Source: a virus (lineage: Duplodnaviria > Heunggongvirae > Uroviricota > Caudoviricetes). Taken from it: a stretch of 64,000 nt of DNA. Within the stretch, counting starts at the first letter, position 1. Every line of letters begins with the position of its first letter. Positions 6,759 through 55,400 of the stretch are shown here, piece by piece. Under the pieces are notes generated by a model. It was not told the DNA's origin and made no database searches. It worked only from the letters and a program-made list of their open reading frames with translations. Made by a program: the position numbers and the translations under genes. Where the stretch lies: positions 55,003-119,002 of IMG/VR virus record IMGVR_UViG_3300021479_000008. One strand, 5' to 3'.

Positions 6759-7114
6759 ACGACTATGGCTCCGTTCTCGCCGTCTTCTGAGACTTCCACT
6801 GAATGTATCTTGTATGTTCCATCTGCTTCGACGAATGAGATTATGTCTTCAGCGATCATCTCACATGACTTTGCACCAAACTGGTGTATAGAACTTCCAC
6901 CGGAGAACAGCTCATCTACTCTTTCACGAAGAGTAATAAATTCAACGTCACGATCATTATGCCCTACTTGCACTGTTACCTTTACGTGGAACTCATGCCG
7001 ATGATTATCGCGCAAATACTTAACTTCACTGGGTGCATCCGGCCATCTATGAAAACCTACAAATCGTGTCGTACAGTACACATACGTTTTTGCGTCTAGC
7101 ATTATTTCCTCCAA
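6752..7114 (-). CDS. queD: QueD-like 6-carboxy-tetrahydropterin synthase (PTPS family)
   Basis: ~116-120 aa with the His-rich zinc motif (DNHRHEFHVKV) typical of QueD/PTPS. The likely true start is the ATG at 7102, with a GGAGG RBS and a promoter copy immediately upstream. Confidence 0.7.
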   Translation of the reverse strand: MEEIMLDAKTYVYCTTRFVGFHRWPDAPSEVKYLRDNHRHEFHVKVTVQVGHNDRDVEFITLRERVDELFSGGSSIHQFGAKSCEMIAEDIISFVEADGTYKIHSVEVSEDGENGAIVVC

Positions 7115-7116
7115 GC

Positions 7117-7129
7117 TTATTATACAGAA
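7117..7129 (-). promoter_or_regulatory. extended -10 promoter copy 3 (TTTCTGTATAATAAGCTTGGAGG cassette)
   Basis: Perfect TGTATAAT followed by AAGCTTGGAGG and the ATG of queD. The 23-nt cassette is identical to copy 4. Confidence 0.6.
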
Positions 7130-7138
7130 ATGGAAAAG

Positions 7139-8801: not shown

Positions 8802-9402
8802 GATTATCTATGCTATTGGGAGTAAAGCTCCACCATACAATCTTCTTTTTATCTATTAACTGCAACATACCTGTGATCATCCAAGCAATACCCTCACGTA
8901 CGTTCTTATTCATAAATCTATGCCCGTTATCTACGTACGGAGCGTCAGTATCAAGATGAATAAGTACATCATAATCAAATGTGTGATTCAAACTTTTCAT
9001 TACCAATTCTTCCAACTCTTTCTGTGGTGCGTCTTGTCCACACAAATACAATCCACAAGCGGCACGAACTAACGATGCACTATCGGCTACGAAATCTTTT
9101 TTACCATTCTCCAGCTCAAACTGGGCTTCATGCATCGCTTTCTCGAACTCAAACTTCAGTTTTATACCCCAAGCGTTCCAACGATACTCTGCCCATTCTT
9201 CTCCGTATTTCTTGACTACTCCCTCATACGGATCTGGTATATGTTCTACACTGAGCTTTTCAGCCAGAAGTTTTGACATCGTTGTCTTTCCCGTACACTC
9301 CGCTCCAACGAATGCTATTTTCATAAACCCCTCAACTGAACCAATCGAGAAACGATTTGATTGTGTATCATAGCTGGTGATCGAACTGTACACTTGGCAC
9401 AT
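8758..9402 (-). CDS. P-loop NTPase (kinase-like)
   Basis: Walker A GAECTGKTT. The likely start is MKIAFVG at about 9324, overlapping the upstream stop by 4 nt. The fold resembles small nucleoside/nucleotide kinases. Confidence 0.5.
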   Translation of the reverse strand: MCQVYSSITSYDTQSNRFSIGSVEGFMKIAFVGAECTGKTTMSKLLAEKLSVEHIPDPYEGVVKKYGEEWAEYRWNAWGIKLKFEFEKAMHEAQFELENGKKDFVADSASLVRAACGLYLCGQDAPQKELEELVMKSLNHTFDYDVLIHLDTDAPYVDNGHRFMNKNVREGIAWMITGMLQLIDKKKIVWWSFTPNSIDNLARMHCAEKLSASK

Positions 9403-10313
9403 TGACCATGTAACGGCCTTCCTTCTACCTCGTGTTCCATCATCTCGTGGCGCAAAGTCTTAACTATGTGATTGTTCCAGATTTCTTCGAGACTCTGCTC
9501 GTAAAGATTCCCATAGTAATTGATCTCTTCCTTTCTGGGAGTAAAAATCATGCAACAACTCACCACGTCCCCGTTATGTGCTATACTGACTGACGTAAAT
9601 GGGTTCAAGCACAAACCAAGGTGACTAGTTGCTTCGTTAATACCACTGATGCCTACTCTATCTTGCATTCCCTCGAAACAATCGTAGATCGTACGTACTA
9701 CGGCGAAACGATCCCACCCTTTTTCTTTCATGACTTGCTGCAACGCTTCCAGATCACCACTCTTTTCTACCAACGGTGTTTTCACCAACTGGAGTTCGAT
9801 CATTGGAATACGACCATGAGCTAGATTCTTTCTGGCTTCGATGAACTTGAAAAACTTATCGAGATTACGGTATAGGTCTTTCAAATGTGCGGGGAAGCGC
9901 ATCCTGTGGTATGTCTCAGGATCGACAGAATCGACTGAGATCGTTAACGCATCTAACATTCCCAACGTAACGTCTATGCTTGGTTTTTCCATACTCAAGC
10001 CATGAGTAGAAAGACCTACCAAGACTCCAACTTCATGCTTTAGGTAATTTACTATCTCGAACAACTTTGGATGCAACGTAGGTTCTCCGGCCATCTGCAA
10101 TTCGATGTAATGACTACCACCAAAGTCCCCGCGTTCTTTCATCAGCTTCAACAACTTCATATCAACAAGGCCCGGTTGACGGCCTAGATGTGTACTGCGC
10201 AGGCACATTGGACATTCTAAGTTACAGGCTGAACACGTTTCGATGTTGGAAATTTCTGGTAAGTGTTTGAAACTTTGTCCTTCACTATGCTGATACGTAT
10301 TTATCCCTTCCAA
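9321..10313 (-). CDS. radical SAM enzyme with C-terminal SPASM/twitch-like Cys cluster
   Basis: CSACNLECPMC is a CxxxCxxC motif and AGEPTL is a GGEP-type SAM motif. C-terminal Cys cluster (CC...C...C). TTG start with a GGAGGT RBS. Does not look like a canonical QueE. Confidence 0.7.
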   Translation of the reverse strand: MEGINTYQHSEGQSFKHLPEISNIETCSACNLECPMCLRSTHLGRQPGLVDMKLLKLMKERGDFGGSHYIELQMAGEPTLHPKLFEIVNYLKHEVGVLVGLSTHGLSMEKPSIDVTLGMLDALTISVDSVDPETYHRMRFPAHLKDLYRNLDKFFKFIEARKNLAHGRIPMIELQLVKTPLVEKSGDLEALQQVMKEKGWDRFAVVRTIYDCFEGMQDRVGISGINEATSHLGLCLNPFTSVSIAHNGDVVSCCMIFTPRKEEINYYGNLYEQSLEEIWNNHIVKTLRHEMMEHEVEGRPLHGQCAKCTVRSPAMIHNQIVSRLVQLRGL

Positions 10314-10789
10314 GTCTTACCTCCATTCAAACGTCGGTAAACATTAGCTACAGCTATATCAAACTTTTTGGCTAAATCATGAACTGTATACTTACTACTA
10401 TTCCACATCTTCTTCATTTTACGTAACTTTTTAGTGGTTAATTTGCCTCGTGCTATTACACCATTATCAGCGGCATGTTGTTGATTACCCTTTGGGGTAA
10501 TATATTCTAAATTATCTGAACACGCATTCGATTTATCCAAATCTTTATGATTTATTTCCATTCCTTTTGGACGTGGGCCTATGAATTTTCGTGCAACTAA
10601 TCTATGTACTGGAATATATCTTGTCTTGCCATATATACTTACACTAACTTTCAGATATCCATCTTTATCGAAATATCCGGTAAGAATCTTACCAACGCGT
10701 GTACCATTACCTGGTTTAGCTCGGCGGATTCTACCTAAATTGGAGACTTCGTAGTAACCCCTAAGGCAAGCCTTCCATTGTTCTTTCAC
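10301..10789 (-). CDS. HNH homing endonuclease (NUMOD4/HNH_3 type)
   Basis: YEVSNLGRIR N-terminal motif and INHKDLDKSNxxxxNLE...N HNH motif. Confidence 0.75.
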   Translation of the reverse strand: MKEQWKACLRGYYEVSNLGRIRRAKPGNGTRVGKILTGYFDKDGYLKVSVSIYGKTRYIPVHRLVARKFIGPRPKGMEINHKDLDKSNACSDNLEYITPKGNQQHAADNGVIARGKLTTKKLRKMKKMWNSSKYTVHDLAKKFDIAVANVYRRLNGGKTWKG

Positions 10790-11835
10790 ACAGTCTCCAA
10801 AATATCAAATAGATCTTCGAAAAACGAATCGTCAATCAATTTTTGATGGAATTGACTTTTGAATGGTGTATGTTCAGCTATATGCTTAAAACCAGAATCA
10901 CGCGTTACTACATCGCGTAACTTATCACAAAGATCGGAATATCCACGATAGCGAAATGGATCACGAAATATTTCCCGGTATGCCAGACGATCTGGCACAA
11001 TAGGATAACATCCCAACATCACAGCTTCGATCATACTTATACCAAACATTTCAAGCAAAGCCGTAGAAACAACAACTTTTGACTTCGCCAATAACTGGTA
11101 GTAACTTCGCTTATCAAGTTTTTCATCACGTGTACGTACAGCGATCCAATCTTTAGGTAGAATTTTTTCGTCGTGGATCAGCTTACGAAACAACTCAGGC
11201 TGTTTGTCTTCGGTGAGGCGATGCGGAAAGACTACTATGTTCTCTTTTTTACTTGGATATTCTAACAACTCTTTTGGTACTTCTACCTTCCAAGGAATAA
11301 CTTCAATTTTATGGTTTGGAATTATACGAGTTTCCAACAATACCCGTTCGTGGTATTCTGAGGCGACGACTACCCTATCGTAGATCTTGAACCAGGCGTT
11401 TTCTAGTTCCTCCCCCCACACATACATATTACTACGTGTAACAAAATCCCACACGTCCCAATTACCGTCATGGAACAACCCGACGAATCTCCAGTCGTGA
11501 CATTTCAATCCGTCACGTATGTAGGCTAACTGTTCTACTGGGAACCATCCATCCTGGAAAAGGAATACAACGCGTTCGTTACGGGGAATCGTACCGTCGT
11601 CTATTAACTGGCAGATACGTTGAATCTGACTAGCTTTAGCGTAGTGCGTTCCAACCACGTCTAGAAAAGCCCCATCTTTTATTTCTGATCGTAGCGTAGA
11701 TGGATGTATCGGAATCGTTGTATATCCCTTCTTGCACAACTCAACGTGAAACCAGTTTGCCCACTGAGCACTATACCGACTTTCTAACTCCTCAATTGGA
11801 ACATTTACTACGATCATGTTTCCTCCAGAAATCAA
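10786..11835 (-). CDS. GT-B fold glycosyltransferase (GT4/GT1-like)
   Basis: EMFGISMIEAVMLGCYPIV matches the E-x7-E nucleotide-sugar-binding motif of GT4 enzymes. The likely ATG start is at about 11817 (GGAGGAAAC-ATG). Confidence 0.6.
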   Translation of the reverse strand: MISGGNMIVVNVPIEELESRYSAQWANWFHVELCKKGYTTIPIHPSTLRSEIKDGAFLDVVGTHYAKASQIQRICQLIDDGTIPRNERVVFLFQDGWFPVEQLAYIRDGLKCHDWRFVGLFHDGNWDVWDFVTRSNMYVWGEELENAWFKIYDRVVVASEYHERVLLETRIIPNHKIEVIPWKVEVPKELLEYPSKKENIVVFPHRLTEDKQPELFRKLIHDEKILPKDWIAVRTRDEKLDKRSYYQLLAKSKVVVSTALLEMFGISMIEAVMLGCYPIVPDRLAYREIFRDPFRYRGYSDLCDKLRDVVTRDSGFKHIAEHTPFKSQFHQKLIDDSFFEDLFDILETV

Positions 11836-12031: not shown

Positions 12032-12625
12032 TTATTCTCTTGTCCACTTCTTATCGCCAACTTTGTAATTACTGACACGAAGCCGGCCGTGAGAGTCATC
12101 CACGTCCCACTTCCAGCCTTTGGAATGACCCTTACGCAGACCACGAATAATAAACACGGGATTGCCGCCTGCCTTCTCGATAAACTTCTTGAGTTTCTTT
12201 AGATCGACTCCGCCTTTAACGGCTGCCTGTTTGAATGCTTGACCCAATATGGATTCGTCCTGGTAAGGTATCTTCCACGTCATCCACTGAGCGCCTTTTG
12301 GTCCCCGCTTTTTCCCCGACTTGCCTTTCTTTTCTTTCTTTTCTTTTTTCTCTTTCTCAGGCTTATCCTTTTTCTTCTTTTTATCTTTCTTTCCTTTCTT
12401 CACCTTTTTCTCCTTCTTGTGTTTCTTCTTTTTCTTGTCCTTCTTCTTAGCGTGTTCGGATTCACTTTCTGATTCTTCTTCCTCTTCTGATTCTTCGGCC
12501 TGACTTTCTGATTCAGATTCACTTTCTACTTCGGACTCATCTTCATCGTGCGCCATATTTTCTCCTTTAGAGTTTATGTCTAATAAACAACCTACAAAAT
12601 CTTTCGTCCCCACAGTTACTACCAC
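12032..12625 (-). CDS. highly charged protein (acidic Glu/Ser-rich N-terminus, Lys-rich centre, conserved C-terminal domain)
   Basis: Low-complexity stretches ESESESE and KKKDKKKKKHKKEKK. The likely start is MAHDEDE at about 12556. The composition suggests DNA-binding or histone-like behaviour. Confidence 0.45.
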   Translation of the reverse strand: MVVTVGTKDFVGCLLDINSKGENMAHDEDESEVESESESESQAEESEEEEESESESEHAKKKDKKKKKHKKEKKVKKGKKDKKKKKDKPEKEKKEKKEKKGKSGKKRGPKGAQWMTWKIPYQDESILGQAFKQAAVKGGVDLKKLKKFIEKAGGNPVFIIRGLRKGHSKGWKWDVDDSHGRLRVSNYKVGDKKWTRE

Positions 12626-17888: not shown

Positions 17889-18122
17889 TTACAACACCAC
17901 ACGTACCAAAGATTTATGTGAAATAACCTCACGATTATGATTCTGAACTTCATGTACTACATGCTCAGTAATTTCTGGATCTGCAATGTACGAATCGTAC
18001 TCACCATCATACGAAACCACTTCCCGATCTCGCGGAAATTCGCACAACTTAAGTAGAAGATCAGCTACCGTCATATTCCAACCTCCAAGCTTATTATACA
18101 GAAACCCTATATCTATTCTCAA
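17889..18122 (-). CDS. hypothetical small protein (likely true start ATG at about 18074)
   Basis: The track ORF extends through the upstream promoter cassette. An internal ATG has a GGAGG RBS. Confidence 0.35.
   Translation of the reverse strand: MRIDIGFLYNKLGGWNMTVADLLLKLCEFPRDREVVSYDGEYDSYIADPEITEHVVHEVQNHNREVISHKSLVRVVL
18091..18103 (-). promoter_or_regulatory. extended -10 promoter copy 4 (TTTCTGTATAATAAGCTTGGAGG cassette)
   Basis: Identical 23-nt promoter+RBS cassette to copy 3. Confidence 0.6.
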
Positions 18123-22496: not shown

Positions 22497-22509
22497 ATAT
22501 TATACAGAA
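22497..22509 (-). promoter_or_regulatory. extended -10 promoter copy 5
   Basis: Minus-sense CTTCTGTATAATATAAGC-ATG. Confidence 0.5.
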
Positions 22510-22545
22510 GTGTAAAAGCTATTTTCTATGCTGATGAACAGTGAG

Positions 22546-25500
22546 TTATTGGAAAAGTACGTAAGGAATCGCTATTGATGTATTCTTAACATTGGCGTAT
22601 GTCCAAGGAACAATTCCACCTGTTGATGCTGGTAGCGCTCCTCCAACTGGTACTGTAAAAGCTATGGCGAAATTCGTAAAAGCATTATTTATGCCTGTTC
22701 TAAACCAATCTATAAAATCAGAAGCTGTTGGAGGATTGTTCGCCCCAACGGATAAAAATCCAGCGTGTGTTAGCATAGCTAAAAGTATATCTGTTGTAAA
22801 CGCAAACCAATATGCTCCAGCTGGTAATGTTACTGGAGGAAATGTAGCAGTTACGTTTTCATTAGCCAATGGACCAACAATCGAAAATAGGGCATTAGCT
22901 AGTAACGTAGTACCATCTATACTATAAATACCACACGAAAAATGACCTGTACTTGATGGTACACTGGAAACAAATATAGTAGCTGAACTGAACGTACACT
23001 CAACTGGTAATACCATACGAATCATTGGAACAATCTGCCCGAAAGTTACCTGACTTTGGCAAGCCACATTCTGGTTACTGATAGAATTTGTATCGAATGG
23101 AAGTATAAATCCAAATACGGAATTCCATGGAGCTTGATTCTGTGGAATTGCCGCTCCTCCACCACCTCCGCCTATTACAGGTATACCTGACGACCCTCCC
23201 CAAACTATTACTGACGGAATACCATCTCCCAATCCGTCAAACGGAGTTACTTTTATCAGACGAGGACTTAACCAGTCAGCTGCCGGAAGTGGGGACTGTT
23301 TAAGTAATTGCGGGTTCGACGGGTGGTCGACTGTGTACTTACTTAACACAACTCCACTGGATACATCGAACGTTTCTACTCTATGCCCATCTGGTAGTCC
23401 TGTGGCTAATCCCCACGTCAAATTCTGTGACTGTACTTCAACGGCTAATCCTGAAATCGATGGTACTGTAAACGATGGCACTACTGTCGTAAGCGAATAA
23501 TCCCACTGTAGATTGAAAAAATATACCGCCAATCCACCTATACGACTACCTGGAGTTAGGGCTTCCAACAATCCCAACGCTGTAGCTATATCCGGTTGCG
23601 TTAAATCAATCACCAAATCCGACGGAGCGAATACTGGGCGCTGTATTAACGTTCCCGGTTGTGCCCCCGGAATAAACGATGCTATGATTACACTGGAAGA
23701 AAATCCCGCGACTAATCCTACCAACGGTACTAACTGTACCCCTCCTGCAAGACTTGTTGCATAGGTAAACGATGTCGGTGTCGGTGTTGCTAAGACTACA
23801 ACTGTCGTACTGAATACCGCACCATTTGTCAATGCTTGTGAAAACGGAGCTATGAACGTTGGATTGGCTCCATACCATGCCCCAATTACTACTGTCTGTC
23901 CTGGGGTAAAACCATGATTCCCTTGTGTATAAACTGTACCTATTCCATTTATTATCGAACCACTGGCTAGGAGATTATACCCGTTTCTTGAAACTAACTG
24001 CAACGTACCAACGCTTGAGTTCTGAGACTCCAATGAACTACCGATGATATCTGGATACGGTGGACCGTATTCTATCGTACCAACGAATGGATTTGTCTGT
24101 GATTGAACACCATGCGATCCTAAAACACTCAATACTCCCGATGCTGCAATTATACGAAAACCATTGAACGAAGCGTCTGTAGGACACGTGGCGTATACTA
24201 TATCTCCTTCTATAAAATCTATCTGATTATTGCCTCCCCCTACGAATGATCCCGCTAACACGTATATCGTTGTTGTAGGTTGTCCTGTTTCTGCAAACAA
24301 TGACGTTGGTGGGAACGTATTTGGTCTTGCATCTCTATAAAACTGGTAAACTAACTGACTTGGATTGGTATTTGGTATCTCAACTATTTCCTGAAATGCA
24401 AAACCTGACGATGACAGCGCACGAAGTTCTAGTCCATAAATATCACGCACATCTCCGGCGTAATCAGTGACTATTTTCGAGGCGTCACTACTTACCAATG
24501 TCGGAGGATTCGGTATTAACGGATACTGGACACGCAGAGCTTTACTGAATCGTGAAAACTGAGAACCATTCAACGTTCTAAGATACCACGTTTGATCTCT
24601 ACTCGTTCTCGGCAACGTGAATACTGGAACGGTGAATAATCCGACTCTTCCTTGGTTCGCTATCCCCCATCCTGAATCTACATTCCTGACTTCACAGGCT
24701 GTAATCGGCGGTGCTCCAAGATTTACCGTTACATAATTTCCCGTCAACGAATCGACTACATTTACTATAACGGCATTATCCAACGTAGGCAGGAAAGCGT
24801 TCAATACCTGCGGTAGTGTTATCGGATTTGGAGGCTGGACTGTTTGCTTTGGCGTTAGAACGTTCTGGTCTCGTTCTAAAAATGCTGGTAGTAATTTCTC
24901 CAAGTACAAGTCAGGACCGTAATCGACTGTAATCGTCATTACTTCCTGACGAAGTTCTATCAACTGGATCGTGACTGTATTTACGTAGAAGTTCTGTCCT
25001 GTTATTCCTCTGTTCGGAGAATTGATATACAGGAACCTACCCGTTCTCGGGTAATCGTATAACGAAGGAGCATACAACGATTCAAACTTATTCGGTATCG
25101 TTTGTACGGTATACGTTCCTTGGAACTGGGGATATTCTCTGTCTAAGATCGCTGCTGCGGCTGCGGCTTCACACTCTGCTGACGTTCTGGGCAACGGAGA
25201 CAAATTCAACATTATGGCAGCACGTACACCATTATCTCCGGAAATCACGGCTTCGTTGGCTATGGCTATCGGATCTGTGACTCTGGCGACACTTTGGCCT
25301 GCTGCCCAACTCTGGAACCGTATTCTGGCTCCGACTGACGGAATATCGTCGGTATAGAACGATAACTCAAATACCTCTCCTTGCTGCGATATCTGGGCTG
25401 ACTGATTTACCTGTCCGACTCCCAACTGGTATACTATCGGTGCTGACAACTGGGATGGTAACCATGGCAGGTTCCCACCTGATGCTCCTGTCAACGATTG

Positions 25501-27363
25501 AACTGTTAAGTATCCCTGCGGCGGTAGACTCAACAGAGTATAGTTTATCGAACAGTTCAAGTTTATACAGTTTACCAGACAGTACAGACCAAACGGTGGC
25601 AGATTTATGTTCGTCAACGAAAACTTCGTTACCACCGGCGGAGGAGCGGCTGGGAATAGTCCAAATAACGGATTTCTCTGCTCTATAACATACTGACCTA
25701 GGCTAACGTCAGTAATTACCCACGTAATAGTTCCCGATGAAGTCAGATTTTGGGCACCATACGTTGCTGTTTGCGTTAAATTGGTATACGGACGCGTAAA
25801 CCTTGTCGGTGCTCCGGCTCCTATCCACGTCTGCAACGTATACTGGTGGTTTACTTGCGTTACTATGGGCTGTCCTACGTAAGCTCCACTGAATATTGGT
25901 TGGATTACTATACCGGCTGCACCCGATGCTGTTACGAATACCGCGTTTGCTGGGAATGATATCTGTCCCGTGTCCGCTGTCGGTCCATACGGATTCGCGT
26001 ATATGGCAGAGCTCTGGACTATCAATGTCCAACTACCTGTTCCCTGTGTTACTGAAACGACGGTAAATACATGTCCGTTCAGGAACGATGCATTCGTAAA
26101 CAACGAAGCGTTCAGAACGTTTCCGGGAAGGATATTCGTCGGTGCTGTACCGGCTATGATTAGATTTACTAGCTGGGTGTTACCGTTGACTATCTGTACT
26201 CCTGATACCGCGAACGTACCAAGGTTTTGTTGTCCCGTTATTCCAAATCCACACAAAACGTTTCCGGGAATGAAATTATTTACACCGAATACTGAACCTA
26301 TCAAACCGTTACAGGCATCGTTAAACGTTATCGAACCATGCTGGAGATTGAGTCCGCCACCAAGCTCAAGACCATTCTGCGCCTGAATATACGTAGCATT
26401 CTGAACTGGTAAGTAAACTCCGGTTAACCCTTTCTGGACTATATTCAAAGCACCAAGAGCGTTTCCGTTACTATCGGTGAGTATTTCTACTCCCAACGGA
26501 TCGTTGACAGTCCACGTTCCTTGGGTAAAACTAGCTTCCGTCCAATCGTCCTGCAACAACGTTAAAGACGTTCCTTGAAATACCTGATGACGTAACTGGA
26601 AGTTACTTGTAAAACCATCACCTATGAAGTAGTTATCCCAGTTTGTCTGCGGCTCCGTGTCTCCCAACACTATACAATCGTTTACTGGTGGAACGGTTAC
26701 AACGTTTGTTCTCAACTGAGCCGGTGCCAACTGACGCTCTTTCATGTTCTGGTCGTCGTAGGCAATACCCAACGGAGCGTCACCGAATGGCTGGTAGATG
26801 ATTTTCTTGTTTATTACTTTATAGTAGTAGCGATTCTGATCTGCGAATGTCTTGGCTATATCGGAAAACGTCTGGGCTGGATCGTACTGGTAATAAGGAA
26901 CTAACGTTCCTGTGGCCATTCCTGAAAAATCCCACGGGATTCCCGGAGCCAATGCTGTGGCTATAGACTGGAGTATTTGTGTATCTGTCTGGTTTACGAA
27001 TGCTGGAATGAAAGAAACTGTGTTACAGTTGATTAACCACTCATCCGACGTTGCATGTACGTTGTAATTGTACAACTGATACTGTATCTGGACTCCGGAT
27101 GCTTCACTGAGACCCAGAAAACTACGTTCTGGAACAGATGTTATGAAACCCGTGAATAGTATCTTGTTTGGGAATATCTCCGACTGTACTGTTATGTATG
27201 AACCACGTGGTGGAGGGACGAATGCTGCGTCTACATTACTTAACTGGAAGGAAAATAACGTAGGAACGTTTATACTGTCTTGCAGATTCGCAGAACCATC
27301 AACTACATACCTAGTATAGTCAATCGCAGGCTTGTTTTTTGCGACTTGGATTAAAAACTTCAT
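22546..27363 (-). CDS. tail fiber / host-specificity protein (1605 aa)
   Basis: Giant Thr/Ser/Gly/Asn/Val-rich protein immediately downstream of the tape measure gene, with a Gly-rich segment (GGGGGAAIP). Confidence 0.6.
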   Translation of the reverse strand: MKFLIQVAKNKPAIDYTRYVVDGSANLQDSINVPTLFSFQLSNVDAAFVPPPRGSYITVQSEIFPNKILFTGFITSVPERSFLGLSEASGVQIQYQLYNYNVHATSDEWLINCNTVSFIPAFVNQTDTQILQSIATALAPGIPWDFSGMATGTLVPYYQYDPAQTFSDIAKTFADQNRYYYKVINKKIIYQPFGDAPLGIAYDDQNMKERQLAPAQLRTNVVTVPPVNDCIVLGDTEPQTNWDNYFIGDGFTSNFQLRHQVFQGTSLTLLQDDWTEASFTQGTWTVNDPLGVEILTDSNGNALGALNIVQKGLTGVYLPVQNATYIQAQNGLELGGGLNLQHGSITFNDACNGLIGSVFGVNNFIPGNVLCGFGITGQQNLGTFAVSGVQIVNGNTQLVNLIIAGTAPTNILPGNVLNASLFTNASFLNGHVFTVVSVTQGTGSWTLIVQSSAIYANPYGPTADTGQISFPANAVFVTASGAAGIVIQPIFSGAYVGQPIVTQVNHQYTLQTWIGAGAPTRFTRPYTNLTQTATYGAQNLTSSGTITWVITDVSLGQYVIEQRNPLFGLFPAAPPPVVTKFSLTNINLPPFGLYCLVNCINLNCSINYTLLSLPPQGYLTVQSLTGASGGNLPWLPSQLSAPIVYQLGVGQVNQSAQISQQGEVFELSFYTDDIPSVGARIRFQSWAAGQSVARVTDPIAIANEAVISGDNGVRAAIMLNLSPLPRTSAECEAAAAAAILDREYPQFQGTYTVQTIPNKFESLYAPSLYDYPRTGRFLYINSPNRGITGQNFYVNTVTIQLIELRQEVMTITVDYGPDLYLEKLLPAFLERDQNVLTPKQTVQPPNPITLPQVLNAFLPTLDNAVIVNVVDSLTGNYVTVNLGAPPITACEVRNVDSGWGIANQGRVGLFTVPVFTLPRTSRDQTWYLRTLNGSQFSRFSKALRVQYPLIPNPPTLVSSDASKIVTDYAGDVRDIYGLELRALSSSGFAFQEIVEIPNTNPSQLVYQFYRDARPNTFPPTSLFAETGQPTTTIYVLAGSFVGGGNNQIDFIEGDIVYATCPTDASFNGFRIIAASGVLSVLGSHGVQSQTNPFVGTIEYGPPYPDIIGSSLESQNSSVGTLQLVSRNGYNLLASGSIINGIGTVYTQGNHGFTPGQTVVIGAWYGANPTFIAPFSQALTNGAVFSTTVVVLATPTPTSFTYATSLAGGVQLVPLVGLVAGFSSSVIIASFIPGAQPGTLIQRPVFAPSDLVIDLTQPDIATALGLLEALTPGSRIGGLAVYFFNLQWDYSLTTVVPSFTVPSISGLAVEVQSQNLTWGLATGLPDGHRVETFDVSSGVVLSKYTVDHPSNPQLLKQSPLPAADWLSPRLIKVTPFDGLGDGIPSVIVWGGSSGIPVIGGGGGGAAIPQNQAPWNSVFGFILPFDTNSISNQNVACQSQVTFGQIVPMIRMVLPVECTFSSATIFVSSVPSSTGHFSCGIYSIDGTTLLANALFSIVGPLANENVTATFPPVTLPAGAYWFAFTTDILLAMLTHAGFLSVGANNPPTASDFIDWFRTGINNAFTNFAIAFTVPVGGALPASTGGIVPWTYANVKNTSIAIPYVLFQ

Positions 27364-27390
27364 TTGAGTAGGTTATTAAAGGCATCGTGG

Positions 27391-27449
27391 CTGCGTTTAC
27401 GTGGTTTGAGACGAATACTTTTCCGTTTTGAGTGGTTTTGGTGGTTGGA
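27391..27449. repeat. 59-bp element, copy A (near-identical to 49042..49100)
   Basis: ctgcgtttacgtggtttgagacgaatacttttccgttt..agtggttttggtggttgga. 57 of 59 nt match copy B. Lies in the gap between the tape measure and tail fiber genes. Confidence 0.7.
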
Positions 27450-27465
27450 ACGTAAAAACGGCAGT

Positions 27466-30400
27466 TTATACACCTTCTCGTCTAAATCCCGCACTCCCAT
27501 AACGACCTCGCGTTTCGTACACTTTCTGCAACATTGCTTCAAAACTTGTCCCGCTACTCGAACCAACACTCATACTTGTATAAAGACTTTGCAGGGCTTT
27601 AATGTTTGCAGCTTCCGATTCTAACTGGGATTGCCGTGCTGTGATAACTGCCATCTCAATATTCGCACGTTTATTCGTAAGATTAAACAACTGGTTGTGT
27701 ACTGTCAATGATGTACTATCTGTTGCTCCACCAAATATTGCAGACGACTTTATTTGTGGAGTAGCAACTGGTCCCATCATAAAACTATGAATCCCATTTA
27801 TCATACTAACGATTGGCTTCGGAAGGACCCATTCCCCTTTATGACCGAATATCAATCCAGTACGACTGATTTCTCCACCTAAAGCATACTGAGGAGCGTT
27901 TGGATACTGATTCAATCCACCTGGGGGTGTTCCTCCACCCGGCGGAGTACCCCCTCCTGTTGACGTTCCCCCACTCTGCAACCAACTCACCAACCCCGTC
28001 ATATCGTATCCCTCGACTTCTCCCTGAGATACGTACTGTGACGCATCGGCTGCTGCGGCCGAATACTGTTTATTCAAAATCATATTAGGAAAATTCGGAT
28101 CGAGTGAAGCTACATACTGAGCCGCACTAGCATCTGTGGCTGGAACCAGAGATAACCAATTCGTAGCCCCATACTGTCCGGTAATCGTACCGGGTGGAAC
28201 GTACTGAGATAATCCCAACATCTGCATCAACGCATAAAGTATTCCTGTTCCTGTTGGTAATGCTCCTCCGGCCTCCATACTCGTCAACGTCTGCATTATG
28301 CTACCAGTTGACAGTCCAGTTCCCAACGAAGATACTATCTGGGATAAGGCTGCGATCTGAGCGACTTGAACGTTGATCTGTGATTCTTGTGCTGAGAGTA
28401 ACTGATTCTCCAATCCTATTCTGGTAGTTGCTAGATTGAATATCTGTGTTTCGGCTTGAACCTTGTACTGCTCCATACTAATCTGTTCGTTGATCTGTTC
28501 CAACTGCATGTCACGCTGATAACGGAGGACACCGATCTCTTGTCCTTTCGTCATTGCGGTTGTACGTTGACGAGTCAATACTCCTTGCGTCAATACGTCG
28601 TACTCCGACTGGGCTTCCTGATTTATCAACTGCTGTCTCTGGTACTCAAGATTGATTAACGTCAACCCATCTTGAATCGCTTGTTGCTGTGCGGTATTAA
28701 GCTGATTACTCAACGTTGTAACGTACTGTTGCAGACTGGCAGTTAGGTACTGGTTGGCATTTGCTACTTCCTGTGCGTTGCCTTGCGCAGCGGAAGCGAA
28801 TTGCTGATACTTTTGAATGATCGTATCCAACGACTGGATGTATTCTTGGAATTGGATCGGAGCTGACAACTGGATAAGTGATTGATTCAGATTCTGCAAC
28901 AACACTGTTTGTTCGTTTACTAACTGTTGAATCTGAGAGTCGATCTGTTGTATTACTGCTTGAGCCTGGGATGGGGTATATCCCTTTTTAGCGCCACCTC
29001 CTTTACCACCTTTTTTACCAGCTCCACCTGATGACAACATCGCTATTGCTTGTTGTCTCTCTGCTCTTAGATCTGCAATGGCTTGCGTCAACGATATCGT
29101 ACCAGCTTGTAGATCGGAAACTATTGACTGCAACTGTGTTTGAATCTTGTGAATATCTTGCTGTAATTCTTTATTCTTGGAACCGAAAATACCGCCTAAC
29201 GTTGCACCGACTCCTAACCCAATCAATCCGCCAAACGGAACACCAAGCTTAGAACCAAATTCCGCACCGGCCATACCACCACTCAACGCACCACCAGCTC
29301 CCGACTTACCGGCGGTGAGTCCTTGAATTAGCCCCATTACTCCTTGAATCACACCTGATAAGTCGTCACCAAAATGCTTCAACCTTTCACTAGCCGATTT
29401 CGAAGAATTAAATAGCTCTGTAAAACTTTTACCCAATGAACTGAAAATATTGGATGGCCCTTCCCCAGTCTCTTGTTGCTTCTGCTTTATTGCATCCTGG
29501 CGTTGACCGAATACTCCAATATTCTGAGACGATTGCTGCATCTGCCCGAATAATTCTGATATCCCGGCTGCCGTTTTGCTTCTGGGAAAGACTCCGGCCA
29601 AACCACTTATAGATCCGAATATACCACTCAACTGCGTCGATACGTCTTTCAACTTAATCAATTCTTGCGTTAACTTCTGAATCGACAACATCGTTTGTTC
29701 TATATCTTCCTGTCGTTTTAACTCCGCGTCTGATCCTGGTGCGAATTTCTGTGCTTGTAAAGCTTGCAGGTGCTGTTGGGCTAACGAAGCTAACTGTTGT
29801 TTCGCACTGACTTCCAATCCAAACGATCTGCCTGTTATGTCTCCGGCTGCTATCTGTGCTTGTGTTTGTAACGGACGTGTTTGCAACTGGTATTGGGTTT
29901 GTAGTGCACGTAAACGTACCTCATCTTCAGACTGATCCAACAAAGCTAACTTCTTGTTTCTATCTTCTCTATTTTTATCTTGCTCGTCTTCTATCTTTTG
30001 TGTCTCGGCTCTATTCTTCTTTGCGACGGCTAGCTGATTATCCAATCCATTCTTAACTGCGAGATACTCAGCTATGATTAACGTTCTACGCTTGTCGAGA
30101 TAATCGTCAGCAGAAACCAGACCTTCATGGAAATCTTTCTCCAACAAAGCTTGACGTGTGGCGATACCTTCTTTAACTATCGCTGTTAGATGCTCTTCAT
30201 GACTACGCTTTGCTGTTTCTGTGTCTTGCTCAAGTTGCCGATCCGCAGCATAATTCTTTTCCTGAAACGCTGTGTTTTCTTTCTCACGTTTATCCTGAGC
30301 AGAAAGATTCTCTTTCTCAATCTTCTCTTGGGTAATCTTATGTGGTTCGGCTGTATCTTTTGCCGTCTTCGTTATGAAACCAATCTGGGCTTTTCTATCG

Positions 30401-32292
30401 TCTTCGATCTGCTTTAGTCTGGCAGCATGTTGCTCGGCATATAATTGCTTTTCACGGGTAACTTGCTGTTCAAGACTAATACGTCCGGCTTCGTAATCCT
30501 GTTTTGCAAGATCGATCTTACGTTTGTTGTACTCGACTTCAATATCGTACTTCAACTGGGCTGTTTCTTTAGCGATCTGCAACTCCAACTGTTGCTGTTG
30601 TTTTAACGCCGGAATGTTAAGATTCAAATCGTGTTGTGCACCTGCTGCTGGAGTTGGCTTTTGACCATACCTGAACTGGGCCGCGTCTAATACGTCTTTT
30701 CCGTACTGGATACGGGAATCATTTATCTCCTGTTCCATTGCTGTACGGATTTTCTTTACTTCATCGAACTTACCATGCATCACTGCATCGAGTATGTCTC
30801 CAGTATGACTTATCTTGATGGCAGCTTCGTTTACGTATTCTGCCATCGTAAGGAAACCAATGGACAACTGGGAAATAAAAGTACGGAATGGATCTGTTTT
30901 CTTTTGCAGCGAATCTAACGATGTTCCAACACCAAACAATGCCGATGCGAGACGGGAGTAAGCATCTATCTCTGCTCCGACTAGATGCAAAGTAGCAATA
31001 AACAACTTCAGGGCAGGAGTGACTACTTCTAACGTATCGCCGATCTTAGTTCCTATCCAAGTTACAAATGCTGACAACTTAGGTTGTATCTGAGTAATGA
31101 TTGACGATAATTCACTAACTACGTTCTTAAATCCTTCACTACGGGAAATGGAAACAGCCATATCGTCCATCAAATTCTTCTGGACGATTTGCCATTGCTT
31201 CAACAACTCTGGAAGCGTTGCGGCAGGAGTACCTATAGCTCTTTCTCTGGCTTCCAACGCAGCTAATACCTGATTGAACTGCATTGTGTTTCTAGTGTTA
31301 GCATCGGTTGCTGCACTTACTCCTTTCAGAGCGAGCTCTTGTCTAGTAAGGCCTGTGACCATTGCAAGAATCTGGGTACGGCCTGTTTTCGATGCTCGTT
31401 CCAAGGCGGTCATTGCTTGGGTAGCGTCTTTACCTTGTGCACGTGCAAGATCGACAGTTGCTTTTACCAATCTGGCTATATCGTCTGTACTAACCTTCAG
31501 ACCTTGCTGCATGTAGTTATTGGCAATACGATACAACTGAACGTCATCCGCCAATCCACGTGTTGCAGTACGTAACTTATTCAAGTACTCATCTGGAGAT
31601 ATTCCAGCCCGTGCTGTAAGTTTCTCAAACTGTTCTCGCAACTGAACTGCCGGACCAGTGGCTTCTACTAACGCTTCTCCCAAAGCGTGTATCTTCTCTC
31701 CAGCTTTACCAAGAAGCTCTATTACACCGGCACCGATTAATCCTCCGGCTAATACCCCACCTGCCACACTTCCAAGTACACCCCCTCCTGCCAGTCCACT
31801 GGCAAACCTTCCTATACCCGCCAGTAACCCGCCTTCATTTCCCGTTCTTGTTGTACCGGCTGCGCCCCGTGCTTGTATTTTTGTTTGTTGTTCTGACAAC
31901 CTGACTTGTTGCTGGAGAATGCGGAGACGTTCCTGTTCAAGACGTAAGTTACCAGTTGCTATGGTTTGCTGTTTCTTCGATTCGGCTGTTTCTAAGGCAC
32001 GTTGCTGGATGGTGGTTTTTATCGTTTCTTGATTTTTACGTTCCCACTGAGCCTTTGCGGCGTCAATGGCTTGCAACGTTCTCGCTTCTGCCGTTAACCG
32101 TTTCTGTTCTTCTATCTGCTTACGAGTGAGATCAATCTGCTCCTTTTGAATACTCTTCATCGATGTCGCATCAGCTTTGGCTTTCTGGTTTATAGCGTCA
32201 AGCTGACTACGCATCTGACGGACAGTGGCTTGCCACCCAGCGGTATCGATGACTGACTTTATCAGGAGCTTTTTGGTAATATCACTCGCCAT
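27466..32292 (-). CDS. tail tape measure protein (1608 aa)
   Basis: Long coiled-coil, Gln/Ala-rich protein with Gly-rich segments. Positioned after the chaperone pair and before the fiber. Confidence 0.75.
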   Translation of the reverse strand: MASDITKKLLIKSVIDTAGWQATVRQMRSQLDAINQKAKADATSMKSIQKEQIDLTRKQIEEQKRLTAEARTLQAIDAAKAQWERKNQETIKTTIQQRALETAESKKQQTIATGNLRLEQERLRILQQQVRLSEQQTKIQARGAAGTTRTGNEGGLLAGIGRFASGLAGGGVLGSVAGGVLAGGLIGAGVIELLGKAGEKIHALGEALVEATGPAVQLREQFEKLTARAGISPDEYLNKLRTATRGLADDVQLYRIANNYMQQGLKVSTDDIARLVKATVDLARAQGKDATQAMTALERASKTGRTQILAMVTGLTRQELALKGVSAATDANTRNTMQFNQVLAALEARERAIGTPAATLPELLKQWQIVQKNLMDDMAVSISRSEGFKNVVSELSSIITQIQPKLSAFVTWIGTKIGDTLEVVTPALKLFIATLHLVGAEIDAYSRLASALFGVGTSLDSLQKKTDPFRTFISQLSIGFLTMAEYVNEAAIKISHTGDILDAVMHGKFDEVKKIRTAMEQEINDSRIQYGKDVLDAAQFRYGQKPTPAAGAQHDLNLNIPALKQQQQLELQIAKETAQLKYDIEVEYNKRKIDLAKQDYEAGRISLEQQVTREKQLYAEQHAARLKQIEDDRKAQIGFITKTAKDTAEPHKITQEKIEKENLSAQDKREKENTAFQEKNYAADRQLEQDTETAKRSHEEHLTAIVKEGIATRQALLEKDFHEGLVSADDYLDKRRTLIIAEYLAVKNGLDNQLAVAKKNRAETQKIEDEQDKNREDRNKKLALLDQSEDEVRLRALQTQYQLQTRPLQTQAQIAAGDITGRSFGLEVSAKQQLASLAQQHLQALQAQKFAPGSDAELKRQEDIEQTMLSIQKLTQELIKLKDVSTQLSGIFGSISGLAGVFPRSKTAAGISELFGQMQQSSQNIGVFGQRQDAIKQKQQETGEGPSNIFSSLGKSFTELFNSSKSASERLKHFGDDLSGVIQGVMGLIQGLTAGKSGAGGALSGGMAGAEFGSKLGVPFGGLIGLGVGATLGGIFGSKNKELQQDIHKIQTQLQSIVSDLQAGTISLTQAIADLRAERQQAIAMLSSGGAGKKGGKGGGAKKGYTPSQAQAVIQQIDSQIQQLVNEQTVLLQNLNQSLIQLSAPIQFQEYIQSLDTIIQKYQQFASAAQGNAQEVANANQYLTASLQQYVTTLSNQLNTAQQQAIQDGLTLINLEYQRQQLINQEAQSEYDVLTQGVLTRQRTTAMTKGQEIGVLRYQRDMQLEQINEQISMEQYKVQAETQIFNLATTRIGLENQLLSAQESQINVQVAQIAALSQIVSSLGTGLSTGSIMQTLTSMEAGGALPTGTGILYALMQMLGLSQYVPPGTITGQYGATNWLSLVPATDASAAQYVASLDPNFPNMILNKQYSAAAADASQYVSQGEVEGYDMTGLVSWLQSGGTSTGGGTPPGGGTPPGGLNQYPNAPQYALGGEISRTGLIFGHKGEWVLPKPIVSMINGIHSFMMGPVATPQIKSSAIFGGATDSTSLTVHNQLFNLTNKRANIEMAVITARQSQLESEAANIKALQSLYTSMSVGSSSGTSFEAMLQKVYETRGRYGSAGFRREGV

Positions 32293-34277: not shown

Positions 34278-34290
34278 GTATCCTCTGTAT

Positions 34291-34303
34291 TTATTATACA
34301 GAA
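34291..34303 (-). promoter_or_regulatory. extended -10 promoter copy 6
   Basis: Minus-sense TTTTCTGTATAATAAATACAGAGGAT...ATG. Confidence 0.5.
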
Positions 34304-34316
34304 AACACAGAACAAC

Positions 34317-36247: not shown

Positions 36248-36730
36248 TCACATCTGTCGTGTCATGTAGAGATTTTTCAAGATACTATACTTCTCCGGTC
36301 CAAAGAACAACTGCAACTTCTCTTTCCATTCTTCCGACGGTGGTTCCATGAGCAGACCATAGAATAAAAATCCCAGCCAGAAGCCTTCACTGACTTTGAG
36401 ATTCTTCCAACTGTTACAATTCATTGTGAATGTAGCTCCGAAGAAATCCTTTACGTCTCTCATGTCTGCGTCTGACATAATCGCATCTTTGAAATTGGAA
36501 CGATGAAGGTCTGCTCCTTTCCACGTGGTAAACATCACGTTACTGCCTTCAAAGTTGGCGTAACGAAGATTGCAATTCACGAACTTACTGTATGGCAATC
36601 TGGCAGAACGGAAGTCTGCTCGCTCAAGATCCATTCCGGTGAAATCGCAATCGTGTAGTGACATGCTACGAAAATCCTTCTTACGTTCCTTACAGATCTT
36701 TTCCAACTGTTCCCGCGTAAATTGTCCCAT
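36248..36730 (-). CDS. pentapeptide repeat protein
   Basis: Tandem A(D/N)LxxAxL-type pentapeptides (DCDFTGMDLERADFRSARLPYSKFVNCNLRYANFEGSNV...GADLHRSNFKDAIMSDADMRD). Confidence 0.65.
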   Translation of the reverse strand: MGQFTREQLEKICKERKKDFRSMSLHDCDFTGMDLERADFRSARLPYSKFVNCNLRYANFEGSNVMFTTWKGADLHRSNFKDAIMSDADMRDVKDFFGATFTMNCNSWKNLKVSEGFWLGFLFYGLLMEPPSEEWKEKLQLFFGPEKYSILKNLYMTRQM

Positions 36731-48643: not shown

Positions 48644-48816
48644 TCTTTTCTATCCTTTACACCGAATACGGATTCGTCGGCTTTGCGGAAGTGTTCATTC
48701 AACTCGGCTAACTGGGCAGCTATTTCCTGGAGCATGGAACACTTAAAGTCTTCGTGTGTAGCTACATATGACTCGTCTGATTCAAACTCCAACTTACGAA
48801 TCTTTTCACTTGTCAT
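48640..48816 (-). CDS. unannotated small ORF (~58 aa) with AGGAG RBS and ATGA overlaps at both ends
   Basis: Minus-sense TAGGAGCCGAAG-ATG ACA AGT GAA ... ends TGA overlapping the next ATG. It fills an otherwise empty 170-nt gap. Confidence 0.4.
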   Translation of the reverse strand: MTSEKIRKLEFESDESYVATHEDFKCSMLQEIAAQLAELNEHFRKADESVFGVKDRKE

Positions 48817-49124
48817 CTTCGGCTCCTAGGACTCAAGATTCTTTCGTTGAACTGTTCATCGGTCTCACCGACTACACGTTGATGTTTTTGACTGTACCGT
48901 TCGCATTCTGGATGGAACTTACACCCTTGTCCAAATGGATGTGATTCGTGATGACAACCACAATCACACAAGTAAGAATGCTCAATCCCACATACTGAAC
49001 ACGAATACTTGATTGGGAGTGGGTTGTACGATGCTGTTTGCCTGCGTTTACGTGGTTTGAGACGAATACTTTTCCGTTTATAGTGGTTTTGGTGGTTGGA
49101 GTGGTTTTTACGTGCTAACGGCAT
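48813..49124 (-). CDS. Cys/His-rich zinc-finger-like protein; N-terminus encoded by the 59-bp repeat
   Basis: CSVCGIEHSYLCDCGCHHESHPFGQGCKFHPEC. The N-terminal NHQNHYKRKSIRLKPRKR is encoded by repeat copy B. Confidence 0.45.
   Translation of the reverse strand: MPLARKNHSNHQNHYKRKSIRLKPRKRRQTASYNPLPIKYSCSVCGIEHSYLCDCGCHHESHPFGQGCKFHPECERYSQKHQRVVGETDEQFNERILSPRSRR
49042..49100. repeat. 59-bp element, copy B (near-identical to 27391..27449)
   Basis: See copy A. Confidence 0.7.
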
Positions 49125-50023
49125 TGTTTCTCCTTCAACTTTTGAATTGTTTTACTCAACTGAAACTCCAACTGTGCCGGGCTTACGTATACTGGGTCAA
49201 TGTGACACCACGAAAGGTTTGGATTACCAACAGGTAAAATGTAGTAAGGAGCAAGGCAACGAGGATACATAAGAAAGGTAGGTGTTTCCTGGGACGCTCC
49301 CATGTGGCTAACGCCATTGTCAATCGTCACGAGCAACGCGGCTTTCTGGAGAATTAACATTAACCGATTTAGTGGGATACCAAACATTGCATCTCCAAAC
49401 TTGTCAAAGCCATCTGGTAGTATATCTGTTGGTGCTCCAACGAAGCGGATCGGTACATCGGGAAACTCTTTCTTCAACAAACGCAACATTGGTAACCACT
49501 TTGGAACGGGAAGCATTTTATTAGGTGGGAGGCCGGGAGTATTCTTGTCACGGCTCTCACAACTGGCAGAGAACATGGAAATGATAATACAACCAGCTAA
49601 TAAACCTAATGGTTCATGTGGACCTTCCATCCATTTTCCTTGAGCGGTTGTATCTGGAATATAAATAGGCTTTACTGCTTCGTTGCCCGGTGCCAACTTT
49701 ACGCCCAACAAATCAGCATAACTTCGTGCTAGGTGCTGTTGTTTATCGCGACTTACGATGAATGCTTTGTTGACGTCGAAAACGTGTTCAAAATCGAAAG
49801 TAATTCCTTCTGGCCGATTGAATACTGTTCCGAATGTATGAATTAACGTTCCCGGATTCCACAAATCGCGTACCATACCTTCATACAAACACGCGACGTG
49901 ATCTGGAAGCGTTGACATCCACACATCAACTGGTTGTGTTTGTTGTTCTATCCATTCGCGTAATGATGGCCCAACGTAAAGGCCGTCGCCTATCAAATTG
50001 TGACTAGTAAATAATACCTTCAT
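49115..50023 (-). CDS. glycosyltransferase family 9-like (heptosyltransferase fold)
   Basis: N-terminal MKVLFTSHNLIGDGLY resembles the GT9 start (MKILIIRLSALGDVL). C-terminal LVTIDNGVSHMGASQETPTFLMY resembles GT9 ([25 protein letters not shown]). Confidence 0.55.
   Translation of the reverse strand: MKVLFTSHNLIGDGLYVGPSLREWIEQQTQPVDVWMSTLPDHVACLYEGMVRDLWNPGTLIHTFGTVFNRPEGITFDFEHVFDVNKAFIVSRDKQQHLARSYADLLGVKLAPGNEAVKPIYIPDTTAQGKWMEGPHEPLGLLAGCIIISMFSASCESRDKNTPGLPPNKMLPVPKWLPMLRLLKKEFPDVPIRFVGAPTDILPDGFDKFGDAMFGIPLNRLMLILQKAALLVTIDNGVSHMGASQETPTFLMYPRCLAPYYILPVGNPNLSWCHIDPVYVSPAQLEFQLSKTIQKLKEKQCR
49689..49700. repeat. GGTGCCAACTTT motif copy (in GT9 gene)
   Basis: Exact 12-mer on the plus strand. 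Minus-sense AAAGTTGGCACC. Confidence 0.8.
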
Positions 50024-53123: not shown

Positions 53124-53310
53124 CTCCCATCAATGCACACGTTGCTAATAACTCAAAATAGTGTCGTCTAGGATCCTCGCGTAAGCTTGCCTCCTTTACT
53201 AGTGTATGAACATAATCTTTTATATACTTCCGTTTCGGTGGACGTTCCAGTTTTACTTGTAGCTGGAGTAGGTTTACTATACCGACGTGGAAAGCTTCAC
53301 GCTTTAACAT
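53056..53310 (-). CDS. hypothetical small protein
   Basis: 84 aa. Confidence 0.3.
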   Translation of the reverse strand: MLKREAFHVGIVNLLQLQVKLERPPKRKYIKDYVHTLVKEASLREDPRRHYFELLATCALMGVESMYNAYHPRRKHGSKKENRS

Positions 53311-55001: not shown

Positions 55002-55400
55002 CTAACGTTTAGGCCAAATATATGGAAGATTATCTGGAACCTTCCACTTGAATTGGCTGTAGTACAGCTTATCTTTTCTCAACAGGTTACTTCTATGCGA
55101 ACGATGAAACTTCTTGTTTCCAACAAAAGGCGGAAAACGTACCTGGGTATTGCGTGGAATAGGTATCGTATTTTTATACCCACGGTGTTTCCACTCTTGA
55201 ATCATACAACGCAGGTAGTAACGAAGAGCTGGCTGATATCCTTTCCACATTTTCACAGCTGGATGATACTGCCAGCCTTTCGATTTACCTTGCAGCACGT
55301 TAAGTATCTGCATGGCTTCGACTCGTTGTTTTCCAAGTCTTTTGTTGTCTAGACACGCGGCTGACTTTTGAAAGCTAGCATACGGAAGAAATGTCTGCAC
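55002..55400 (-). CDS. possible pyrimidine-dimer DNA glycosylase (DenV-like); weak
   Basis: The N-terminal pattern LDNKRLGKQRVEAMQIL loosely resembles Pyr_excise LADQHLMAEYREL. Remote similarity only. Confidence 0.25.
   Translation of the reverse strand: MQTFLPYASFQKSAACLDNKRLGKQRVEAMQILNVLQGKSKGWQYHPAVKMWKGYQPALRYYLRCMIQEWKHRGYKNTIPIPRNTQVRFPPFVGNKKFHRSHRSNLLRKDKLYYSQFKWKVPDNLPYIWPKR

Follow-up and report, generated by a model that had tools for sequence, protein, structure and literature searches.

The locus examined here raises the question of why a sequence of 59 nt should be present twice, almost unchanged, in one tailed-phage genome, once between two giant genes and once inside the beginning of a small one. 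In the window, that is, the whole 64,000-nt stretch of DNA that was analysed (positions 55,003 to 119,002 of record IMGVR_UViG_3300021479_000008), positions 27391-27449 (copy A) and 49042-49100 (copy B) are identical at 57 of 59 nt when compared on the plus strand. An exact part of 38 nt occurs twice in the window and in none of 100 dinucleotide-preserving shuffles, and a window-wide search for near-identical dispersed repeats returned this pair alone. The two-copy element described in the initial annotation is thus confirmed by the sequence and by the shuffle test. All long ORFs of the window are on the minus strand, which is therefore the relevant sense for the repeat. In this sense the frame NHQNH(S/Y)KRKSIRLKPRKR is open in both copies, so that the claim of a shared basic peptide frame also stands, with a Ser/Tyr difference. 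Both mismatches (C/A and A/T on the coding strand) fall within one codon, TCA (Ser) in A and TAT (Tyr) in B; over 19 codons there is no synonymous difference between the cores, and the single codon difference is non-synonymous. A tandem repeat is found elsewhere in the window, at 53486-53671, where about 15 copies of a 12-nt unit (GGCCCACACGCT-like) lie inside the ORF 53297-54022; this array may serve as an iteron-type origin or may encode a tetrapeptide repeat of the protein.

In an alignment of the two loci the similarity extends 5' of the core, in the sense direction, up to the start codon of the gene that contains copy B. The 5' flank is CTGCCGTTTTTACGT in A and ATGCCGTTAGCACGT with 9 additional nt in B, which as codons reads CTG CCG TTT TTA CGT in A and ATG CCG TTA GCA CGT in B. 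A similarity of this degree is significant, being reached by 1 of 2000 shuffles and by 9 of 3000 random genomic pairs. The 9-nt indel is one unit of the tandem repeat AACCACNNN (Asn-His-x), of which B has three units and A two, and the length of the homologous block is about 75 nt in A (27466-27391) as against about 84 nt in B. The changes between A and B at the 5' end are ATG to CTG, TTT against AGC, the repeat-unit indel and a 2-nt indel, and the significant part of the 5' flank carries 4 mismatches in 15 nt in addition to the two indels. On the 3' side, an extension of the match to 27366 that came from the repeat search was rejected, the 27 nt concerned, which lie inside the insert described below, showing no significant similarity (p = 0.72); a longer 3' flank compared with B was not significant either (p about 0.15). 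The core is more conserved (57/59) than the aligned flanks (about 66% identity; Fisher p = 6e-5), a contrast that is overstated since the test counts the 3' flank, whose homology is unsupported. The flanks directly adjacent to the two copies had been described as inverted relative to each other (acgtaaaaac versus gtttttacgt). These strings are literally present. They are accounted for by a palindromic ACGT common to both loci and by the indel of the 9-nt Asn-His-x unit, and do not represent terminal inverted repeats of an element.

Copy A is located between two genes that we call g1 and g2:

27391..27449, minus strand: core of copy A, 59 nt, matching 49042-49100 at 57/59 and encoding SNHQNHSKRKSIRLKPRKR in the frame of the candidate relay ORF (see below)
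27364..27465, minus strand: 102-nt lineage-specific insertion between the g1 stop TAA (27468-27466) and the g2 ATG (27363-27361)
27466..32292, minus strand: g1, a tape-measure-like protein of 1608 aa, the C-terminus (...RGRYGSAGFRREGV, then the stop) intact and collinear with relatives
22546..27363, minus strand: g2, a virion structural protein of 1605 aa, the start MKFL conserved in relatives, without a Shine-Dalgarno (SD) sequence

The initial annotation had placed copy A in a 100-nt gap between a tape measure gene and a tail fiber gene. The location is correct and the gap is one of 102 nt. The gene labels are roughly right in view of matches to Tunturi_4, a Tunturiibacter phage, in which g1 is 34% identical over 121 aa to gp13, an annotated tape measure, and g2 is 31% identical to gp15, a 'virion structural protein'. 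Pfam and PHROG searches with g1, g2, the Cys-rich protein discussed below and the small ORF through copy A gave no match. A pentapeptide-repeat protein is encoded at 36248-36730, within the tail-gene module. The genes g1 and g2 share one transcription unit, located between the 34.3-kb and the 22.5-kb copies of the motif TTTCTGTATAATAA, an extended -10 motif (TGnTATAAT-like) that is found on the minus strand at 880-911, 7108-7130, 18082-18104, 22498-22529 and 34282-34304. The copies of this motif directly precede a Shine-Dalgarno sequence and a gene start, and they are probably the main host-type promoters of the phage, with very short leaders.

In six independent relatives (42-69% amino acid identity) the g1/g2 junction is without the insert:

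L001/L011 (IMGVR_UViG_3300037114_000073): ccgTAATGaag
L007/L008 (soil metagenome 3300012362): catTAATGccg
L009 (ENA ERZ27321150): ttaTAATGaaa
L012: ttaTAAATGaaa (TAAATG)
L014: atcTGATGcta
L013: a gap of 16 nt

The C-terminus of g1 and the N-terminus of g2 (MKFLIQ...) in the window are collinear with those of the six relatives. Together with the empty junction, this indicates that the 102-nt spacer is a lineage-specific insertion. No close relative (>70% identity) was found, and a blastn search of GenBank phages with the junction DNA gave no match; the lineage that carries the insertion belongs to poorly known soil siphoviruses, distantly related to Acidobacteriota phages. The insert consists of a 5' part of about 75 nt that is homologous to the start of the Cys-rich gene, followed by a 3' part of 27 nt (27364-27390; CCACGATGCCTTTAATAACCTACTCAA in the sense direction) for which no source was detected in the window or in related loci. 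The 5' end of the insert (CTGCCGTTTTTA, 27464-27453) also agrees at 11 of 12 nt with the start of the g2 homologue in L007 (ATGCCGTTTTTA, 1072-1083); this could be a chance match, or the 5' end of the insert could be partly derived from a g2-type start. In the closest relative, L012 (IMGVR_UViG_3300047496_000044), the match to the g2 homologue has two gaps of about 500 nt (1653-2158 and 3150-3682), which are insertions within the gene.

Copy B, as had been reported, lies within the first codons of a Cys-rich gene, namely codons 9-28:

49042..49100, minus strand: core of copy B, codons 9-28 of the Cys-rich gene
48813..49124, minus strand: Cys/His-rich protein of 103 aa, with a His/Asn-rich basic N-tail of 40 aa followed by a zinc-knuckle-like core (about 39-103)
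49115..50023, minus strand: GT9-like gene, 302 aa, with its stop 7 nt inside the Cys-rich gene

The Shine-Dalgarno sequence of the Cys-rich gene, AAGGAG, is 5 nt upstream of the ATG (-8.8 kcal/mol) and is supplied by the last codons (Lys-Glu) of the GT9-like gene. In the relative L003 the orthologue has its start at the corresponding position, 4-5 nt downstream of an AAGGAG from the Lys-Glu codons of a GT-like gene, and has a tail of 21 aa, different in sequence from the 40-aa tail in the window. In L002 the Cys-rich gene is absent, and the L019 homologue has 5 residues before its first Cys. When 1.84 billion cluster representatives were scanned in full with HMMER, 18 proteins matched the Cys-rich core (E <= 0.001), and the 16 that were retrieved are small members of the family, 52-90 aa in length, with the signature CxxC..H..CDCG.xH..H..GGC..C..Y(S/T)Q. 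An Ile/Leu-Pro-Cys motif preceding the first Cys recurs in several of them. No match covers residues 1-31 of the query, every one beginning at residue 32 or later, and the N-tail is mostly 3-8 aa long among the 16 aligned members, reaching about 29 aa in a few. The tail in the window is composed of three Asn-His-x units and then KRKSIRLKPRKRR, and the basic peptide is absent from the 16 retrieved members. By these comparisons the basic peptide is unique to this phage and is situated in a part of the protein that varies freely.

An AlphaFold model based on the family alignment has a pLDDT of about 90 for residues from about 40 to 100 and a coil without secondary structure for the first 38 residues. 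Compared with the PDB by fold and by sequence, the Cys-rich protein had no significant match. It is probably a small zinc-knuckle-like phage protein with a His-rich, strongly basic and flexible N-tail, for which nucleic-acid binding would be plausible. We also considered whether the codons ATC-AAG in copy B might be a mutated ancestral start, in which case B would be an insertion too. This was set aside on the grounds that L003 has the same SD-proximal start and that the Ile/Leu-Pro-Cys motif recurs. The only promoter-like sequence in the two copies, TTGAGA-16-TATAGT (10/12), is found inside copy B on the plus strand (49057-49084), antisense to the genes. Both mismatches between A and B fall in the -10 hexamer of this site, where copy A reads TTGAGT, and there may be an antisense promoter in B that is not present in A.

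Our results suggest, with a probability of about 0.6, that copy A arose by an ectopic partial duplication of the start of the Cys-rich gene, a one-off scar that would be tolerated as a short relay ORF restoring translational coupling between g1 and g2. Copy B would be the native sequence, the rapidly evolving N-tail of a small zinc-finger-like protein, and copy A a duplicate of the 5' end of this gene, from just before the start codon to about codon 28, which together with the 27 nt of filler would have landed exactly in the g1/g2 stop/start junction. The findings that bear on the direction are that site A is empty in six relatives and that the start of the gene at B is positionally orthologous to that of L003, so that B need not be an insertion, to which may be added that the similarity with B begins at its start codon and that the N-tail is variable across the family; they make B to A the likelier direction of transfer. 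Among the explanations offered in the initial annotation, a recombination-generated module boundary is the one that agrees with the data, copy A having been inserted at a junction that is empty in six relatives and being homologous to the 5' end of another gene.

The duplication probably came about when two SD-start regions that resemble each other underwent illegitimate recombination or template switching, GAAGGAG-AAACA-ATG at B (spacer 5-6 nt) and GAAGGTG-TATA-ATG at the reconstructed ancestral g1/g2 junction (GAAGGTGTATAATG), a mechanism that we infer from the likeness of the two regions. The likeness at the 5' junction, GAAGG(A/T)G..AAAC..TGCCG, is significant, and part of it is native g1 sequence serving as the Shine-Dalgarno sequence; the 3' junction of the insert has no significant similarity to B. 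The near-identity of the core would then reflect a recent event or gene conversion and not a conserved nucleic-acid motif. Two features fit the duplication less well. The uneven divergence, with an intact core beside a changed 5' flank, is not predicted by a simple recent duplication, and the 27-nt filler is poorly explained.

If the repeat were an element in its own right, further copies might be looked for, and several searches were negative. The exact 29-mer of the element has no other copy in viral contigs, degenerate peptide patterns (SNHQNH[SY]K, RKSIRLKPR and others) were not found in viral, metagenome or genome collections, a word-indexed search with the 103-aa protein against 5.8 billion protein clusters did not find the element, and short-word blastn and tblastn of the window and of related loci brought up no additional, weaker copies. 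These results bear on the possibility that A and B are each an insertion of a very small non-autonomous mobile element that targets the space between an SD/stop and the next start. An SD-like GAAGG(A/T)G and the end of a gene directly precede both copies, as such an element would have it, the long N-tail is missing in most members of the Cys-rich family, and an insert of about 100 nt is the size of a MITE. However, the ends of the insert (ACTGCCG... and ...CTACTCAA) are not complementary and form no inverted repeat, there is no clear target-site duplication (at most an ambiguous AA), the 3' ends of A and B are not homologous, and the start of the gene at B is positionally orthologous to that in L003. 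With two copies only and the degenerate scans of viral, metagenome and genome collections empty, we rejected a MITE or other non-autonomous mobile element as a candidate, and we regard the idea that both copies are such insertions, and with it the mobile mini-element proposed earlier, as very improbable. Bacterial MITEs (Correia/NEMIS, RUP, ERIC) are elements of about 100 nt that lie between genes and are co-transcribed with them. The insert resembles them in size, in its insertion between genes and in co-transcription, and differs from them in lacking terminal inverted repeats, a target duplication and a family of multiple copies, and in that one of its copies is the coding sequence of a conserved gene.

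Two further classes of element were considered and set aside. The copies do not behave as the TR/VR pair of a diversity-generating retroelement (DGR), since neither copy occupies the 3' end of a target gene, copy A being outside the long genes and copy B at the 5' end of a gene. The mismatches are C/A and A/T, so neither copy can be a DGR template, and no reverse transcriptase domain was found among the 36 ORFs of the window that were scanned with Pfam. The remnant of a homing-endonuclease target, which had also been suggested, is not supported, as there is no endonuclease gene adjacent to A or B; the only HNH domain seen lies at a distance of 20 kb, as part of a GTP cyclohydrolase I gene. In that gene the HNH endonuclease domain occupies the N-terminal half, and a radical-SAM/SPASM protein and a glycosyltransferase are encoded nearby:

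5601-6758, 9321-10313, 10786-11835: GTP cyclohydrolase I-HNH / radical-SAM/SPASM / glycosyltransferase region

This group may be a deazaguanine-type DNA-modification module with an inserted or fused HNH domain.

A different explanation would be that the core is a cis element shared by the two loci, either an operator, perhaps one for the Cys-rich protein itself, or a CA-rich translational enhancer that coordinates g2 with the Cys-rich gene. The lack of synonymous differences over 19 codons, beside a diverged 5' flank, would be expected under selection on the nucleotide sequence itself. The core is also unstructured, is rich in A+C (75% compared with 51% for the whole sense strand), and lies within 90 nt of a start codon in both copies; CA-rich tracts upstream or downstream of start codons are known to enhance translation in E. 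coli. Against this, the element is absent at site A in six relatives and is absent from the orthologues and the family of the Cys-rich protein. A length of 59 nt is far above that of usual operators, an enhancer acting through its composition needs no exact identity, and the offset from the start codon differs, at +22 to +80 in B and -28 to -86 in A. Nor is there a conserved structure: the RNA folds around the copies have minimum free energies of -16.2 and -14.0 kcal/mol, no better than those of shuffled sequences (z = 0.11 and 0.75), and Rfam gave no match around copy A at E <= 1. A sigma-70-type promoter or an intrinsic terminator on the sense (minus) strand was found inside neither copy. 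We therefore consider a shared cis element unlikely. The initial annotation had listed a regulatory RNA or DNA element among its options, had proposed searching related phages and folding the RNA, and had named absence or divergence in related phages, with no transcript, structure or peptide associated, as what would speak against a conserved element. The element was absent from every relative, the folds revealed no conserved structure, and, as far as sequence analysis reaches, the picture is the one named as contrary to a conserved element.

A repeated motif near translation starts also calls to mind the start-associated sequences (SAS) of cluster K mycobacteriophages, which are reportedly 13 bp in length, present in many copies, conserved in the cluster and placed at a fixed distance upstream of starts. 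The likeness ends with the repetition of a motif near the starts of phage genes. The sequence studied here is 59 nt long, has two copies at differing offsets from the starts and, unlike a conserved multi-copy motif of the SAS or stoperator kind, is absent from all the relatives examined.

Turning to g2, its start has no Shine-Dalgarno sequence. The duplex with the anti-SD has an energy of +1.9 kcal/mol, the weakest of 86 gene starts (median -7), and between the g1 stop and the ATG there are 102 nt. Directly before the ATG, the final 27 nt of the insert put TAATAA in the g2 frame, so there is no alternative g2 start upstream. In the three closest relatives the g2 Shine-Dalgarno sequence is weak (-0.6 to -2.9 kcal/mol) and the ATG overlaps or abuts the g1 stop, and to judge from these sequences their g2 relies on the stop/start overlap or abutment, that is, on termination-reinitiation coupling. 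Translational coupling by termination-reinitiation has been described at ATGA or TAATG overlaps (PMC6728339, PMC10666635) and experiments in E. coli and Haloferax found it nearly lost once the gap was about 20 nt (PMC10666635). The insertion would have cut g2 off from this coupling. The suggestion of a translational coupling signal, made at the outset, thus holds in part: the insert destroyed the ancestral stop/start overlap, and the idea of coupling is retained in that the open frame through the insert may restore it. This frame is the following:

27360..27500, minus strand: candidate relay ORF of 46 codons, its ATG at 27500 preceded by the Shine-Dalgarno sequence GAGGT (-6.6 kcal/mol), translation predicted

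From 27569 onwards the relay frame has no stop until a TGA that overlaps the g2 ATG as ATGA (27363-27360). The arrangement is therefore one in which an upstream stop overlaps a downstream start that has no ribosome-binding site of its own. Ribosomes would start in this frame at ATG 27500 or else at GTG 27473, the latter overlapping the stop of g1 as GTGTATAA, would read about 37-46 codons, would end at the TGA on the g2 ATG and would reinitiate there. A further in-frame entry at CTG 27464 is weak. The Shine-Dalgarno energy of -6.6 kcal/mol at ATG 27500 is better than that at the equivalent ATG of L009 (-3.5) and of L001 (-2.8). The start signal that was copied is not intact, copy A having CTG where copy B has ATG. 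We propose that the insert has been kept because the copied segment supplies an open frame of suitable phase, and that it acts as a relay ORF through which ribosomes finishing g1 would reach the g2 start. The right phase has a prior chance of one in three, and the relay may be fortuitous. The initiation region of g2 has unusually little structure (-3.4 kcal/mol; of 62 gene starts, only 6 have less), which makes SD-independent initiation of g2 a live alternative; the unstructured A/C-rich leader could support such initiation without any relay. That the insert is more than a scar, either as a self-sufficient relay ORF working through two termination-reinitiations or as an operator linking synthesis of the zinc-finger protein to the tail-tip gene g2, seems to us rather doubtful; the first of these would illustrate a way for coupled operons to accommodate insertions.

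The same open frame can be read in two other ways. Copy A could be a real small gene for a free His-rich basic peptide of 35-46 aa, a paralogue of the Cys-rich tail, with a role for example in nucleic-acid binding or inside the virion. The frame is open and has an ATG with a Shine-Dalgarno sequence at 27500, the sole core difference is non-synonymous and leaves the basic motif intact, and the frame is placed within an operon of virion genes. We nevertheless find this distinctly unlikely, because the peptide has no homologue in 5.8 billion protein clusters or in 1.84 billion cluster representatives, the ORF is missing in all relatives, the start codon derived from B is CTG in A, and the identical synonymous sites favour recency over long selection at the protein level. 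Alternatively, the frame through copy A could be a C-terminal extension of g1, reached by a programmed +1 (or -2) frameshift that would add a basic tail to a fraction of the protein. The +1 frame indeed has no stop over the 35 codons that precede the g1 stop and the 34 that follow it, but there is no slippery or shifty-stop motif, at GUA-UAA-A the P-site tRNA cannot re-pair in +1, and no relative has such an extension of g1, so that a frameshift is extremely improbable.

Joints of illegitimate recombination and short ectopic duplications at gene boundaries are known in the mosaic genomes of tailed phages. The duplication proposed here resembles them in being a lineage-specific insert at a gene boundary, derived from another locus, between similar SD-start regions and absent in relatives. 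It differs in that the donor is in the same genome and the insert comprises about 75 nt with 27 nt of filler, and in that it landed inside the stop/start overlap of two essential giant genes. With regard to termination-reinitiation coupling, the closest relatives have TAATG or TAAATG with weak Shine-Dalgarno sequences, and the window has ATGA with no g2 Shine-Dalgarno sequence, as in known cases; what differs is that the predicted coupling would run through an intermediate short ORF with two hand-overs. The event thus belongs to a known category, the recombination scar at a gene boundary, the function proposed for it is the known one of termination-reinitiation coupling, and no new class of regulatory or mobile element is defined. 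The same-genome donor, the precise landing in the stop/start junction and the possible two-step relay are slightly unusual. If the relay is real, a coupled pair of essential genes would have survived an insertion of 100 nt, which would provide a natural test case and bear on how far tightly packed phage operons tolerate recombination. Otherwise the insert is a small datable scar, of use mainly as a marker of recent intragenomic recombination.

Two other features of the window may be mentioned. At 12303-12550 there is a long low-complexity tract, polypyrimidine on the plus strand, where the minus strand codes for a Lys/Glu/Arg-rich repeat. At 1526-4468 a family A DNA polymerase is encoded that has an N-terminal domain of the uracil-DNA-glycosylase superfamily.
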